In this document: in pieces, positions 17,213 through 27,708 of the stretch
Layout of the letters: every line of letters begins with the position of its first letter
Numbering within the stretch: position 1 is the stretch's first letter
Origin: an uncultured Gemmatimonadales bacterium
GTDB taxonomy: Bacteria; Gemmatimonadota; Gemmatimonadetes; Gemmatimonadales; GWC2-71-9
Assembly (NCBI GenBank): GCA_963842945.1
Contig: CAWJIM010000021.1
Span: 192,001 to 256,000 of the forward strand
DNA length: 64,000 bases
Direction: 5' to 3'
Program-made: the position numbers and the translations under genes
Notes under the pieces: model-generated
What the model was told of the DNA's origin: nothing
Databases searched by the model: none
The model's input: the letters and a program-made list of their open reading frames with translations, nothing else

Positions 17213-17294
17213 GCGAACGTGGCGGAATCGGCAGACGCGCAGGACTTAGGATCCTGTCCCGAAAGGGGTGCGGGTTCAACTCCCGCCGTTCGCA
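17213..17294 (+). tRNA. tRNA-Leu (anticodon TAG)
   Basis: GCGAACG/CGTTCGC acceptor stem, D-loop GGCAGA, anticodon arm CAGGA-CTTAGGA-TCCTG, long variable arm and T-loop GGTTCAACTC. CCA is not encoded; a TATACT -10 lies just upstream. Confidence 0.96.
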
Positions 17295-19894: not shown

Positions 19895-20073
19895 TCCTTA
19901 TGGCTATGGTGCGCAACGACATAGGTGGATGAAGCGGGGCGGAAAAAGCGGTGCGCTGCCGACGGTCTGGCAGATTCCCTGAGCCGGCCTAGTCTCGCGC
20001 CGGCAGCTTTCGGACGGTGCCGGTCAGGGCGGCAATGCGAAGCTTGTAGATGGTGGGAATGTCGGTCGGTAAG

Positions 20074-20103
20074 TTGACACTCAGCCGCGGGCGGTCTTAG
20101 CTT
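20074..20103 (+). promoter_or_regulatory. sigma70-type promoter of the leader/regulator transcript
   Basis: TTGACA (20074-20079)-N18-TAGCTT (20098-20103). Confidence 0.65.
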
Positions 20104-20133
20104 GCCAGCGAACGATCATCAGCCGGAGCAACA

Positions 20134-20226
20134 ATGTATCACGGTCTGCGGCACCTCCTCGAGCTCAATCCCCGGCGGCACAACCGCTGGCTTCGCTGCG
20201 CACCGCGCAGAGACCAGGGAGCGTAG
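20134..20226 (+). CDS. Putative attenuation leader peptide (30 aa)
   Basis: MYHGLRHLLELNPRRHNRWLRCAPRRDQGA; GGAG RBS; lies between the promoter and a terminator. Confidence 0.6.
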   Translation: MYHGLRHLLELNPRRHNRWLRCAPRRDQGA

Positions 20227-20291
20227 GCCTTAGCTAGAAGCTCGGACAGTACGTCCTGCACCCAGGCCCGCTCAAGATGAGCGGGTTTTTT
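20219..20291 (+). terminator. Attenuator: terminator with overlapping antiterminator
   Basis: Terminator GGCCCGCTCA-AGA-TGAGCGGGTT plus T-run (20265-20291). GAGCGtaGGCCT (20219-20230) can alternatively pair with AGGCCCGCTC (20264-20273). Confidence 0.7.
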
Positions 20292-20314
20292 GTTGAGCTT
20301 TTACTGGAGTCGCA

Positions 20315-21922
20315 ATGACCAACCCGGCTACCGGGGATGTCCCGCGGATCGTGGTTCATCCCCCCGCCTTGCTGCCGTCCGAAACGAAGCCCCGCCCCAG
20401 CGAGGCTGAGACGGACCCAGCTCCGCTGCTCCGGACTGAGACCGGTGAGGCCAGGAAGCTGGGGACTCTGGTCGACGTCAGCCAGACCCTTGCCGGACAT
20501 CTGAGTCTCCCGGCGGGGCTTTCAGGCGTCCTCCTGATTCTGGTCCGCCGCTGTTCGGTGCTTCGTGGAGCCGTGGCTCTCTTGAGCGAGCAAACCGGGG
20601 TCTTGGAGATCAGGGCCCAGGTAGGGCTGCACCACGATCGGGAAGGCGGTCACTACGGTGCCGCCCAGGGAATCCTCGCGGAGGCAGCCACCACGGGTGA
20701 GACTATCGTCATCGCCCGCCAGGTCGATGGAAACAGCGAACACACCGCGCTGGCAGTTCCAATTGTCTTGCACCGGCGCTGCATCGGCTCGTTGATGGTC
20801 GAAGTGCGATTTCGTCCCGAACGCGACGTGGATCGGCTGCTGAAATTTCTGCGGGTGGTGGCCTCCATGATTTCGCAGGCGGTCCGGATTCACCGGCTGC
20901 TCGAGGTGGAGCGGCAAAAGCTGGTCGCCGAGAACGCTCAGCTGCGCCAGGAGCTGCAGCAACGGAATCCCCTTTTCAATCTCGTGGGGGCGAGCGGCCC
21001 GATGCGTGAGCTCTACGAATCGGTGGCCAGGGTCGCCGGAAGTAACACCACGGTGTTGATCCGGGGCGAATCGGGTACGGGCAAGGAGCTGGTCGCTCAA
21101 GCCATCCACTTGCACTCGCCCCGAGCCAAGAAACCCTTCATCAAGGTGAACTGCGCGGCGTTGCCGGAGACTCTGGTCGAATCCGAGCTGTTCGGCTACG
21201 AACGAGGGGCGTTTACCGGAGCGCTGCAGCGGAAGAAGGGGCGCTTCGAGCTGGCCGACGGCGGAACGTTGTTCCTGGATGAGATCGGCGAGCTGAGTCC
21301 GGCCACCCAGGTAAAGCTGCTGCGGGTCCTGCAGGAGCGAGAGTTCGAGCGGGTAGGAGGAACGGAGTCGGTTCCGGTGGACGTGCGGGTGATTGCGGCC
21401 ACCAACCGGGACCTGGAGAAAGCACTGGCCGACGCCAGCTTCCGGGAAGATCTGTACTACCGGCTGAACGTCTTCCCCATCTTCATCCCGCCGCTTCGCT
21501 CCCGAAAAGCGGACGTGCTTCCCCTGGCAGATCACTTCATCGAGAAGTACGCCCGGGAGCACGGGAAGAACATCCGGCGGATCTCCACGCCGGCTATCGA
21601 CCTGCTCTCCAGCTATCACTGGCCCGGCAACGTGCGCGAGCTGGAGAACACCATCGAGCGAGCCGTCCTGCTGGCGGACGGAGAGGTCATTCATGGCTAT
21701 CACTTACCGCCGACGCTGCAGACCGCGGACGCCACCGGCACGGTAGTGAGCACTTCGCTGGATGGTGCGGTCGAGGCCTTCGAGCGCAGTCTGATCGAGG
21801 ACGCCCTCAAGACCGCCCGGGGTAATCGGTCCCGGGCCGCGAGGCTCCTGGGCACCACTCAACGGGTGATCAGCTACAAGGTCAGGAAATACGGGATAGA
21901 TCCGGCTCGACTGAAGTCGTGA
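20315..21922 (+). CDS. sigma54-dependent transcriptional activator (GAF-AAA+-Fis HTH, NifA-like architecture)
   Basis: [29 protein letters not shown] and [10 protein letters not shown] motifs; C-terminal HTH; N-terminal GAF-like region. Confidence 0.95.
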
Positions 21923-22149
21923 CCGCCCTTCGCTTCAGGAGCCGCCTCAGTGCGGGAGGAGTAGGCGGCGACCGCGGCAACGAGCAGATTGGCCACGATG
22001 ACCGGCAGCGCGTGGAGCATGATGCCGTACACCACCCAGAGGAGCGCGGCTGCGGCCTGGGTCAGGCGGAGAGCTTGCTGGGTCTTGCGGGAGTAGGAGG
22101 CCAGGAACACGGCCGTCGCGAGCCATCCCAGCGCGTCGGCGGCTCTCAT
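21874..22149 (-). CDS. Small membrane protein (YgjV/PQ-loop-like)
   Basis: Three hydrophobic segments ([25 protein letters not shown]); ATGA coupling to the HAD gene. Confidence 0.7.
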
Positions 22150-22956
22150 GCGACCGCCGGGTGCTTATCGGGATGGGCTCCCCGGATGATCAGGGAGTCA
22201 GTCCGCGCCTTGTCCCACTCCTGCAGCACAAAGCCGTGGGAGCCAAAGAAGGCGCGGATGGCGCCGGCGTCGAGTTTGACGATCTCTTCCAGCACCGGCA
22301 CCATCACGCTGAGCACGTCGTCGCTGAGCACGGTTCTCCGGGCGATCGGGGTAAGGAACTTGTTCTCGGACACCGCGACCGTCAGTCCGTCCATCCGGTT
22401 CACGTGCAGCATGACATGCACGTCCGACCCGCCGTCTCCAACGTAGACGATGCGATCGCCGCTCAGTCCCAGCTCGGCCCGAAGCTGGTCCAGCACGGCC
22501 ACCTTCCCGTACCCGGCCGGTGCCCTGATGATGGACTGGATCTCGCCCGTTTCCGGGATCGTAGCGGAAACGGGTGCCGTGGATCCGCTCGGGCGGAACC
22601 ATTCCGGCCAGCGCAGCACGGATCACTTCCTCCGGCGCGGCCGAGATGACGCAGAAGGTGAAGCGGAACCCCTGCAGTGAGTCCAGCACCCGGCCGAGCA
22701 CCGCGATATGCTGCTTCAGGCGGATGCGACGGCCCACCTCTTCCAGGTCCTCCTTTCGAACCCGCCGGTATTCCGGATCGTGGAGCAAAAGATAGGAGAG
22801 CTCGGCGCCCTGATTCACCAGATGCATGGACGAGAGCCCCGAGCACTTTTCCTCGAACCCGCCGATGCCGAGCATCTCGCTCAGGAGGAAGCCGGAATCG
22901 TTGAAGCTGAGCGTCTGATCGAAGTCACTGGCCAGCAGATAGTGCTTTGGGTTCAT
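22146..22956 (-). CDS. HAD-IB family phosphatase (phosphoserine-phosphatase-like fold), frameshift near 22555
   Basis: [11 protein letters not shown] (motif I), VISAAP (II), GYGK (III) and YVGDGGSD (IV) across ORFs 22198..23130 and 22146..22619. Confidence 0.85.
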
Positions 22957-23288: not shown

Positions 23289-23398
23289 CACTCCTCTGAA
23301 AACATCAAAGCTTCGCCGCATGCTGACGCTCGGCGAAGACGATCGAGTCACGATTGCGCAACGAGCCGCGACTTTCGTGGGGGTCCAGCGATACGAAG

Positions 23399-23413
23399 GC
23401 AACCCGCATGCCA
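23399..23413 (-). promoter_or_regulatory. sigma54 promoter of the 3-gene HAD operon
   Basis: Minus strand TGGCATG-CGGG-TTGC, one mismatch to TGGCACG-N4-TTGC. Confidence 0.8.
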
Positions 23414-23475: not shown

Positions 23476-23522
23476 CCGACCAGATTGTCGGAAGCCTTCG
23501 GTCCAATCGACAAAATTGTTAG
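23476..23522. promoter_or_regulatory. Paired palindromic enhancer (UAS) candidates
   Basis: CCGAC-CAGATT-GTCGG (23476-23491) and TCGAC-AAAATT-GTTAG (23507-23522), 31 bp apart, upstream of the sigma54 promoter. Confidence 0.6.
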
Positions 23523-23803: not shown

Positions 23804-25057
23804 ATGAGTTCCATCACCGTCGAGAAGACTGCCGAAGATTCCGCCTCCAAGTCATTACGTGTGACGGTACCGGTAGACCGCATCCGCGAGGCGGAAGAGC
23901 GGGCCTTGAAGTACTACGCCAAGCGGGCCCGGCTGCCGGGCTTTCGACCGGGCAAGGCGCCGGACACCGTCGTCCGCAAACGCTTCGGCGATGCCATTCG
24001 CCAGACGGTACTCGAAGAGGTGATTCGGGAGAGCTGGGAAACCGCCAAGACCAATGAGTCGCTCAAACCGATTACCGATCCCTCGATTCGCAATCTGAAG
24101 TTCGAAGAGGGAAGCCCCATCGAGTTCGAGCTGCACGTGGAAGTGCGGCCCGAGCTCAAGCTGGATCGAACCGGCGGCTTCCGGCTGGAGCGCCGGGTGG
24201 CGCCGGTGAGCGATGAGGCGGTGGCGGAGCAGGTGACCCGAATTCAGGAGCACAAGGCTACCTGGATCCCGATCGAGGGGGCCAAGCCGGCCCCAGGGCA
24301 GATGGTTCGAGTGGAGGTTGCTCCGGTAGAAAACGGAGTGGCCGGATCGGCTCAGCCTCACGATCTGGTGCTGGGCGAGAACCAGGCCATTCCGGAGCTG
24401 GAAGAGCAGATCATGGGGCTCCTCCCGGGCGAGACCACGGAAACCGAGGTCCGCTTTCCCGAGGATCATCCTGACGAGTCCCGCCGGGGTCAGACTCGCC
24501 GGGTGCGGATCACGCTGCACGAGGTCAAGCGGCAGGAGTTGCCGCCGCTGGACGATGCGCTGGCGCGCGAGTCGGGAGATTTCGAGGGCCTCGATGCGCT
24601 CAGGGCCGCCATCCGCCAGGATCTCGAGCGCGAGGCGGGCCGCGAGGCCGATGCCCAGCTCCGGCAGCAGCTGATTGCCCAGATTGTCGAGGCTAACCGG
24701 GTCGAGGCTCCGCACTCCCTGGTTCACCGGCTGCTGCACGGGTACGCCGAGATGTACAAGGTCCCCCAGGACCAGCTGGAGGGGTTCGAGCAGCAGTTTC
24801 ATGGGATCGCGGAAACCCAGGTCAAACGCGATCTCGTGCTGGATGCTCTGATCGAAGCGCACGGTCTCCGCGCCACCGAGGCGGATATTGACGAGCGAAT
24901 CAACAGCATGGCCGCTGCCCGGGGAACGCCTGCCAGCCAGGTGTACGCTTCCCTGCAAAAGGCCAACCGGCTCCAGGAGCTGGAGCGGGTGCTTACCGAA
25001 GACAAGGTCTTCGATTTCCTCCTGAAGCAGTCCACCATTGAAGAGGTCAAGTCTTGA
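23804..25057 (+). CDS. tig: Trigger factor
   Basis: [10 protein letters not shown] signature and FKBP-like middle domain; lies directly upstream of clpP-clpX. Confidence 0.95.
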
Positions 25058-25059
25058 CG

Positions 25060-25692
25060 ATGGCCACTCTGTATCCGCCCTATATCATCGAGCGTTCCAG
25101 TCGCGGCGAGCGCACCTACGACATCTTTTCCCGCCTGCTGATGGACCGCATCGTGTTTCTGGGCGCTCCCATCAATGACGATGTCTCCAACATCATCATC
25201 GCGCAGCTCCTGTTCCTCGAGGCCGACAACCCCGATAAGGACATTTACCTCTATGTCAACTCGCCCGGCGGGGTGGTTTCAGCCGGCATGGCCATCTACG
25301 ACACCATGCAGCACTTGAGGGCGCCGGTGAATACCATCTGCATGGGGATGGCTGCTTCGATGGGGTCCTTCCTCCTGGCGGCCGGGGCCAAGGGCAAGCG
25401 CAGCGCGCTACCTCATTCCCGAATCATGATCCACCAGCCCTCGGGCGGGGCCCAAGGGACTGCGGCGGACATCGAGATCCAGGCCCGCGAGATCCTCTAT
25501 CTCCGCTCCAAGATGAACTCGCTCTACGCCCTGCATACCGGGCAGCCGATCGAGACCATCGAACGAGACATGGATCGCGACCGGTTCATGAGCGCGGAAG
25601 AGGCCAAGGCCTACGGTTTGATCGACAGCGTGTTCACGCCGCACAAGGAGTTGGTGCCACACACGAACGGCAAGGACCGCAAGGAGACTTGA
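25060..25692 (+). CDS. clpP: ATP-dependent Clp protease proteolytic subunit
   Basis: [28 protein letters not shown] and [11 protein letters not shown] motifs. Confidence 0.98.
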
Positions 25693-25753
25693 CGGTCGGG
25701 AGACCCGGGGGCACTTTACCCGGCACCCAATCACCTCCATCACGAAGCGCTCC

Positions 25754-26997
<1,244 letters not shown>

Positions 26998-27001
<4 letters not shown>

Positions 27002-27708
27002 GACAAGCAGGGCAGCGGGGCAGCGGGGCGGCGGCGGCAGAGCCGAAGCAGTCGGAAGGAAGTCTCAGGGGCGCACTGGGTGCGCCCTTCTCACGTGCGG
27101 CTGGTGCACCCAATCCACTGGCCTCCCAGCCGGTCGAGTTTGTCGGCTCGTTTCCCGACCCCGGCGTACGGCTGGAGCCTTTGCTACCCGAGATCGCCTT
27201 TATCGGGCGATCCAACGTGGGCAAATCGAGCCTGATCAATGCCCTGCTGGTCCGACCCGGGCTGGCCCGGGTCAGCGGCTCTCCCGGCAAAACCACGCTC
27301 CTCAATTTTTACCGGCTGCCATCGCTGTATCTGGTGGATCTGCCGGGCTATGGCTTTGCCCGGGCCAGCAAGGCCGACCGGGCCGGCTATCGGAAGCTCG
27401 TCAACGGCTATCTCCGGAGCAGGCAGATGCTGAGCGGGATCGTGTGGCTGCTCGACATTCGACACGACCCATCGAAGGAAGATCGGGAGATGCAGGAGTT
27501 ATTGATCGAGAGCGGCCGACCCGTGCTAGCGGTCTTGACCAAATCGGATAAGTTGAGCCGCTCCGCCACTGCTGCCCGTCAGCGTGAGCTGGCGGAGATT
27601 CTGCAGCTCCGGACGGAACAGATCGAAATGACCAGCAGCCGCTCGGGACTGGGAACATCCGAGCTGGCCCAGAGTGTCTTGGCCGCCGTCCAGGGGGGAA
27701 GCCGATGA
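26998..27708 (+). CDS. engB: Ribosome biogenesis GTPase YihA/YsxC (true start may be downstream)
   Basis: [22 protein letters not shown] and TKSD motifs. Confidence 0.93.

Follow-up and report, generated by a model that had tools for sequence, protein, structure and literature searches.

We analyzed a stretch of 64,000 nucleotides, hereafter the window, in which a promoter, a short leader ORF, and an intrinsic terminator precede the gene of a sigma54 activator (Table 1). Base-by-base checking showed that the coordinates given in a preliminary description for the promoter, ribosome binding site, leader ORF, terminator, and regulator ATG were all correct. Transcription is predicted to start at approximately 20110. 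A consensus scan listed the terminator; the promoter, whose -10 box matches at 3/6 positions, was absent from the list. The terminator fragment exceeded its shuffles (z -3.45). Upstream, the promoter abuts what is left of the 3' end of a gene for a CheY-like response regulator, which is intact in relatives. Alignment to L053 is interrupted at 20072; the deletion extends to the -35 box, and the operator-like box region of some relatives is gone. Orthologous activator promoters carry palindromic TGCA-N5-TGCA boxes upstream of the -35 box, at -21 and/or approximately -94 (e.g., L047, L067, L143, and L148), which are absent from the window's clade; the T-N11-A pattern is of the LysR type. Downstream, an operon convergent to the activator gene encodes a secreted-looking protein of 110 residues with the conserved core C-x-P-A-P-L-[TM]-E-[RS]-P, a HAD-IB phosphatase, and a YgjV-like membrane protein. 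A tRNA-Leu gene (17213-17294) flanks the module, and the flanking genes at 23804-27708 are presumably trigger factor-clpP-clpX-GTPase.

Table 1. Features of the leader-activator locus, with loci carrying related leaders.
Feature	Position	Strand	Basis or remark
3' remnant of CheY-like response regulator gene	20040..20073	-	Translated, it matches the L053 receiver protein at its end; Pfam Response_reg
Sigma70-type promoter TTGACA-N18-TAGCTT	20074..20103	+	Sequence; -35 at 20074-20079, -10 at 20098-20103
Leader ORF ribosome binding site GGAG	20125..20128	+	5 nt upstream of ATG
Leader ORF, 30 codons and TAG	20134..20226	+	7 Arg, 5 Leu, 3 His, 1 Trp, 2 Asn, 1 Cys
Candidate control codons	Asn12 (20167-69), Asn17 (20182-84), Cys22 (20197-99)	+	Comparative codon analysis
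Predicted antiterminator 5' strand (region 2)	20219..20230	+	Folding; overlaps leader stop codon
Intrinsic terminator (regions 3:4) and U-run	20264..20291	+	Hairpin 20264-20288, six T to 20291
GAF-AAA+-HTH sigma54 activator	20315..21922	+	Profile matches; ATG at 20315, 23 nt past terminator
YgjV-like small membrane protein	21874..22149	-	Last gene of likely target operon; frame overlaps activator 3' end
HAD-IB phosphatase	22146..22956	-	Split by frameshift near 22545 in assembly; intact in relatives
Protein of ~110 aa	22953..23282	-	First gene of likely target operon; signal-peptide-like N-terminus
Sigma54 -24/-12 promoter TGGCAT-N5-TTGC	23399..23413	-	Kept in orthologous loci reaching that far
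Two palindromic ACA-N4-TGT boxes	23476..23522	.	31 bp apart; likely activator sites
Porin leader loci L269-L298, L252, L256, L265	Upstream of porin gene		Asn-rich, leaderless
HAD genes with own Asn/Cys leader			L260, L261, L310, L311, L316, L317, L319, L320, L322, L326-L328

A genome-wide scan of 134 promoter-like sites revealed a short ORF with a hairpin and U-run at two sites only, the window leader and a Phe-rich leader. The latter (G000:C3:180153, plus strand, same genome) combines a promoter, three consecutive Phe codons, and a terminator, and looks like a classical Phe attenuator; we take the gene behind it to be pheA-like. Neither blastn nor a covariance model detected a further copy of the window leader in its own genome, where the polyamine-cluster porin gene and both tRNA-Asn genes are without such a leader. 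An Rfam scan of the window returned one tRNA and no leader or riboswitch family at the gathering threshold. The best local scores were 18.4 bits for Trp_leader (cut-off 41) and 14.7 bits for Leu_leader (cut-off 50), and assignment to a known riboswitch or leader family was rejected.

Genome and metagenome searches supplied the activator loci, of which 175 distinct ones were screened. At 44 of them the activator is at least 67% identical, and 33 of these keep the promoter, the ORF, and the terminator core; in the remaining 11, the contig end falls before the leader. All 33 leader loci have TTGAC-N17/18-TA[GC]xxT at the same place. Alignment of orthologous upstream regions, proposed earlier as a check, revealed the leader ORF in 33/33 close loci with upstream DNA, some of the ORFs being leaderless. 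The peptides are 16 to 45 codons long, yet the leaders stop 26-49 nt upstream of the terminator. Ten relatives with 81-93% activator identity keep the promoter, ORF, Cys codon, and pairing. The covarying terminator pairs that had also been proposed did not emerge: two-sided changes occurred in 1/9 pairs, and 40-271 of 500 shuffles were as high. As the terminator stem is nearly invariant (core CCCGCT/AGCGGG; in an alignment of 27 leaders, 98.8% of its cells are paired), column covariation gives no support.

In the activator tree (41 rows; midpoint root for drawing only), clades with and without the leader were separated with full support, and an activator clade of the same genus with 58-63% identity lacks both the leader and the HAD neighbor. 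A promoter and short ORF were present in 10 of 118 further loci with upstream DNA, namely three repeats of known loci, five distant activators with the same terminator, and two unrelated cases. A search that used a distant ortholog as the query found the activator in 19/301 genomes of the order, in three genera. Ten loci of genus g19, two of genus g33, and the five distant activators of the 118-locus screen gave, with duplicates removed, 15 distinct distant loci; leader and terminator were found in 13, and the two from g33 are without a leader. The unpublished genome G065 contributed L283, one of the 31 porin leaders described below, and L043, which was dropped as a duplicate with the same leader among the 33; none of the conclusions depends on G065 by itself. 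Some loci differ in gene order. L067 (5028-5870) has the order leader, porin paralog, activator; a porin end precedes the activator in L006 and L140, and a short porin remnant lies in the leader-to-gene spacers of L003/L004. The short leader-activator arrangement of the window may stem from porin loss.

The segment containing the leader stop codon had been described as able to pair with the 5' arm of the terminator. This pairing is predicted (-21.3 kcal/mol), but on its own it is not above shuffles (z -0.69). The terminator 5' arm at 20264-20273 is common to the predicted antiterminator and the terminator. Because the antiterminator register shifts between lineages (alignment A1), per-locus folding was used instead. 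Over nine lineage groups, the region-2 pairing exceeded shuffles (Fisher p 0.003), whereas a control segment did not (p 0.39); in a single-locus duplex test against dinucleotide shuffles, 13/33 loci passed at p 0.05. The sequences of the pairing strands differ between lineages. In the folding model, the RNA extended to the terminator loop, the ribosome footprint was -15/+13, and an antiterminator was counted when P was at least 0.5. With the modeled ribosome at the stop codon, this value was reached in 0/33 loci, and with the ribosome at the conserved Cys codon in 26/32. For the window, modeled antiterminator probabilities were 0.96 at Asn12, 0.52 at Asn17, 0.71 at Cys22, and 0.01 at the stop. 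The folding proposed earlier as a check predicted an antiterminator with a ribosome stalled upstream. Once the transcript is complete, the terminator prevails, also when the ribosome is placed at Cys (P 1.0 for the window). As the terminator wins at equilibrium, the switch must be kinetic or co-transcriptional. Conservation, the modeled folding geometry, and a plausible target operon support the earlier suggestion of a ribosome-dependent terminator/antiterminator switch before the sigma54 activator.

In naked RNA, the antiterminator forms in 17/33 loci, so that any upstream stall would read through. A consistent 1:2 protector hairpin was not found across the 33 loci; it is present in some short leaders and absent in others. 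In several lineages, a local hairpin includes the Cys codon, and Leu-Asn has a potential pairing partner in the RNA downstream, so that Cys and Leu-Asn may be conserved in part at the RNA level, for pairing. An RNA-library contig of 151 nt covers positions 20155-20305 and carries no information on termination. Six RNA runs contained 7-14% of the words, and the four examined were contigs, uninformative on starts, ends, and strand.

The preliminary description had counted the Arg, Leu, His, and Trp codons of the leader correctly, and the two Asn codons and one Cys codon had gone unweighed. In a control zone 57-84 nt upstream of the terminator, which was picked after the data had been seen, in-frame Cys occurred in 32/33 loci (8 in other frames; at most 16 in 2000 shuffles), and in-frame Asn scored 25 against 0 out of frame in the 33 close loci. 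The codon z-scores, here and below, were computed against nucleotide shuffles with kin treated as independent and are hence overstated; for whole close leaders they were 12.1 for Asn and 8.2 for Cys, each present in 32/33 leaders and never both absent. Leu, Met, His, and Arg were raised more mildly, and Ala was depleted (z -5.1). The Asn and Cys codons are scattered through the leader rather than set in a tandem run, and their spacing varies from adjacent to approximately ten codons, in either order. In all 32 loci having Cys, it lies 19-33 nt upstream of region 2, and short relatives have up to four Cys per leader. Cys22 does not vary among the 11 nearest loci, which use both Cys codons; the two Asn are each retained in 10 of these loci, and Leu, Arg, and Asp positions likewise show no variation. 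A 1-nt indel after Cys generates two C-termini in this clade (5 vs 6 of 11 loci). The close relative L033 lost both Asn; L056 (close) and L379 (a distant leader) lost Cys and keep Asn.

Leu, His, Trp, and Arg, which had been put forward as candidate signals, did not hold up. Trp was rejected because it is kept in just 8/11 nearest loci, Arg because it scored 24 in frame against 25.5 out of frame in the zone, His because it occurs in the zone at 3/33 loci, and Leu because the distant activator leaders have less of it than their shuffles (z -2.9). Those distant leaders contain 40 Asn against 5 expected, with Asn in 13/13 leaders with a terminator, and one Cys each in 12/13 (13 vs 8 expected, z 2.0). 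Comparison of the sequences thus points to Asn and Cys as the likely control codons, not Leu, His, Trp, or Arg. The genome carries asnS (split), gatB, asparagine-synthase-like, and cysK/M-like genes, which indicates that both tRNA-Asn and tRNA-Cys can be charged; charging of the two tRNAs would presumably track nitrogen or sulfur supply in the host. A search with PF00310 did not find gltB in this genome, which is 87% complete.

A pattern search revealed a paralogous leader before a porin gene, with 31 distinct peptides from 33 loci. Asn was present in 31/31 of these peptides (z 21.5) and Cys in 13/31 (z 0.8). The porin gene with this leader adjoins genes for putrescine transaminase, PotA/PotD-like proteins, and GABA transaminase, and the distant activators adjoin genes for glutamine synthetase, GlnE, and an NMT1_2-type ABC transporter. 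We ranked Asn ahead of Cys because the porin and distant activator leaders are Asn-dominated. The same leaders weaken a Cys-only version of the attenuator, in which Cys is the relevant signal in the window's lineage, the Asn codons are a leftover of an Asn-sensing ancestor or are kept for RNA pairing, and the target operon serves sulfur or serine/cysteine supply. Such a version fits the invariant Cys of the 11 nearest loci, its place 19-33 nt upstream of region 2, the multiple Cys of short relatives, the loss of both Asn in L033, and the database names of the HAD-IB protein (phosphoserine phosphatase-like or MtnX-like). However, the distant activator leaders show a bare enrichment of Cys and the porin leaders none, Asn is strongly enriched in both, and L056 and L379 do without Cys; we regard this version as unlikely.

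HAD genes of other genera were examined at 28 loci, and an own leader ORF was found in 15. These leaders are enriched in Asn (z 7.7) and Cys (z 6.3), with neither in 1/15 (L307), and are followed by a GC hairpin with little U-run; their output is perhaps translational or Rho-type. A Pro-stop end is shared by 10/15 HAD leaders, and a Phe-Thr-stop end by 30/31 porin leaders, with synonymous third-position changes. Conserved terminal residues with synonymous variation are characteristic of arrest peptides, and the Phe-Thr-stop end could mark one. Ends of this kind raise the question of whether the window leader senses a general slow-down of translation, or a small ligand through the nascent peptide (whiB7, tnaC, and speFL types), rather than one charged tRNA. 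In the window, modeled stalls at nearly every codon to approximately codon 24 permit read-through, and, according to the accessible part of PMC10274678, starvation for any uORF codon induces whiB7. The C-terminus of the activator leader family, however, is unconserved, with frame shifts after Cys, the Asn-to-Cys distance and order vary, and a general sensor would need no specific Asn/Cys bias. We consider a general or ligand sensor to be improbable.

The activator is closest to NifA (TIGR01817), with 484 bits against a cut-off of 528.85 and so below it. It shares with NifA the domain order, the GAFTGA loop, and twin palindromes approximately 75-110 bp upstream of a -24/-12 promoter. The differences are a truncated GAF domain, a likely target that is no nif operon, and a box of ACA-N4-TGT as opposed to the TGT-N10-ACA of NifA sites. 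The GAF domain of the window's clade is shortened by a deletion of 14 residues and no longer contains the GEGITG motif, which suggests that activator abundance rather than a ligand may be the main control.

The adjacent sigma54 operon is the likely target of the activator. Boxes were present at each of the 24 distinct orthologous promoters that were examined, although one promoter has a single box, and the pair in the window is the best in the genome (39.6 vs 16.7 for the next of 360 sites, with a matrix trained on close relatives). No other twin-box sigma54 promoter was found among the 360 sites. A strict twin-box pattern gave 11 matches in 9 of 301 family genomes; three of these are the orthologous promoter, and three others precede unrelated genes. 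Apart from L002/L063, the close loci that extend far enough have the HAD gene next to the activator; no locus with an activator less than 67% identical does. An activator-type box also occurs at -53/-54 in 6/33 leader promoters and is absent in the window promoter.

The 28 HAD loci of other genera have either the box (7 loci) or an own leader, never both in this sample. Five of the six box genomes tested carry the activator, and it was absent from 10/10 genomes in which an Asn/Cys leader directly precedes the HAD gene. In these leader genomes, the best activator matches had E values of approximately 1e-87 to 1e-94, against 1e-160 or better for orthologs; in two of the ten, G409 and G504, the Asn-Cys leader was read by eye. 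The box-bearing HAD genes of other genera have no sigma54 consensus, and in G026 the box precedes the HAD gene in a genome without the activator, so that the boxes may serve another factor. Just downstream of the sigma54 promoter of the window (approximately 23350-23370, minus strand), most orthologs have a conserved GTT[GT]C-N6-GTGAC-like motif, a possible site of a second regulator. For the HAD-IB protein, no solved relative and no NCBIfam family was found, and its names come from the Atlas only.

Single frameshifts split the HAD gene (approximately 22545) and asnS (G000:C2:49755-51030). As the assembly also splits asnS, the HAD frameshift is likely a sequencing error, and both are probably assembly indel errors. 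The condition of the locus could be taken to mean that the element of the window genome is decayed or constitutive, its terminator merely damping activator expression and its ORF no longer switching. The deleted upstream gene and operator region, the truncated GAF domain, the frameshifted HAD gene, and the dominance of the terminator at equilibrium are consistent with decay. The ten close relatives that keep promoter, ORF, Cys, and pairing, and the probable origin of the frameshift in sequencing, stand against it, and we consider decay very unlikely.

On the basis of conservation, codon bias, and modeled folding, we think it probable that the leader is a ribosome-dependent transcription attenuator in which a stall on Asn codons, with Cys as the probable second input, admits polymerase to the activator gene. 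The parts, their conservation, and the codon bias are present in the sequence; the switching is predicted from folding. With Asn and Cys ample, the ribosome would reach the stop codon and cover 20219-20230, the terminator would form, and little activator would be made. On shortage, it would stall at Asn12, Asn17, or Cys22; a ribosome held at or before approximately codon 24 would free 20219-20230 to capture the emerging terminator 5' arm, and the activator would accumulate. The signal would be a shortage of charged tRNA-Asn (nitrogen) or tRNA-Cys (sulfur). The activator would then bind the twin boxes and fire the adjacent sigma54 operon, and, given the degenerate-looking GAF domain of the window's clade, its amount may be the main control.

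A wider reading, which we put forward tentatively and hold to be somewhat doubtful, is that a family of Asn/Cys leader attenuators lets Gemmatimonadales sense their nitrogen and sulfur status directly at the ribosome. One HAD module would then be wired to this signal in two ways: in some genera the leader stands before the HAD gene, in others before the gene of the sigma54 activator. The activator of the window's clade would have a decayed sensor domain, leaving ribosome stalling as the sole input. If confirmed, the attenuator itself would be a nitrogen- or sulfur-sensing route that needs no protein sensor of the PII/NtrBC type, an example of a regulon that moves between one-tier and two-tier wiring with the signal kept, and a first functional hint for a large uncharacterized family of HAD phosphatases. 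Gemmatimonadales are an abundant soil group, and little is known of their gene control. As the leader is approximately 200 nt long, it can be tested without culture of the host, either in E. coli or with a defined translation system.

Classical attenuators (trpL, hisL, leuL, thrL, and pheL) share with this leader a promoter, a short ORF, an antiterminator that overlaps the stop codon, and a GC-rich terminator with U-run, and their control codons lie approximately 20-35 nt before the antiterminator strand, as here. Two amino acids are read by one leader in the thr and ilv attenuators, and the present leaders likewise combine two, Asn and Cys. The classical leaders, by contrast, respond to Trp, His, Leu, Thr, or Phe through codon runs and gate biosynthetic operons, whereas here the codons are scattered and the gated gene encodes a sigma54 activator whose likely target is the HAD operon. 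Since the gated gene is a regulator rather than one for making or charging the control amino acid, the leader is described as working like the classical family and is not filed as a member.

The preliminary description had held that such attenuators normally control biosynthetic enzymes; the accessible part of PMC10274678 describes one that gates an activator, the uORF attenuator of mycobacterial whiB7, which has been tested. As in our leader, a uORF-controlled terminator/antiterminator precedes the activator gene, and a variable peptide is enriched for one amino acid. WhiB7, however, is no sigma54 enhancer-binding protein, and its uORF is rich in Ala, which is depleted here. whiB7 also autoactivates, whereas the activator-type box is confined to the few leader promoters given above, the window's not among them. 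As far as the consulted text of PMC1262725 goes, trp attenuators are described in Actinobacteria, some look-alike Streptomyces attenuators failed codon-mutation tests, and related cys leaders occur without a conserved terminator. Mycobacterial polycysteine sORFs, short and often leaderless, stall on Cys codons, as predicted here, and several loci of a single organism answer one amino acid as a 'ribulon' (10.1101/834739, in its available part). These sORFs act on translation initiation through a polyCys tract; the present leaders have an intrinsic terminator, and their one to four Cys are interspersed with Asn. Asparagine is never mentioned in the accessible portion of PMC2965389. A literature search that left subscription journals largely uncovered, and used some sources in part, returned no Asn-codon attenuator, no attenuator-gated sigma54 activator, and none in Gemmatimonadota.

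Two further observations concern leaders outside the activator family. In L302, L308, and L313, the promoter and hairpin remain before the HAD gene, and the ORF part seems to be deleted. In L244 (G028:C164:20378) and at G063:C205:14229, a Cys-rich leaderless ORF and a terminator precede a gene. The L244-type downstream gene had no NCBIfam match at 1e-25, and we take the gene behind these leaders to resemble beta-carbonic anhydrase/COS hydrolase.
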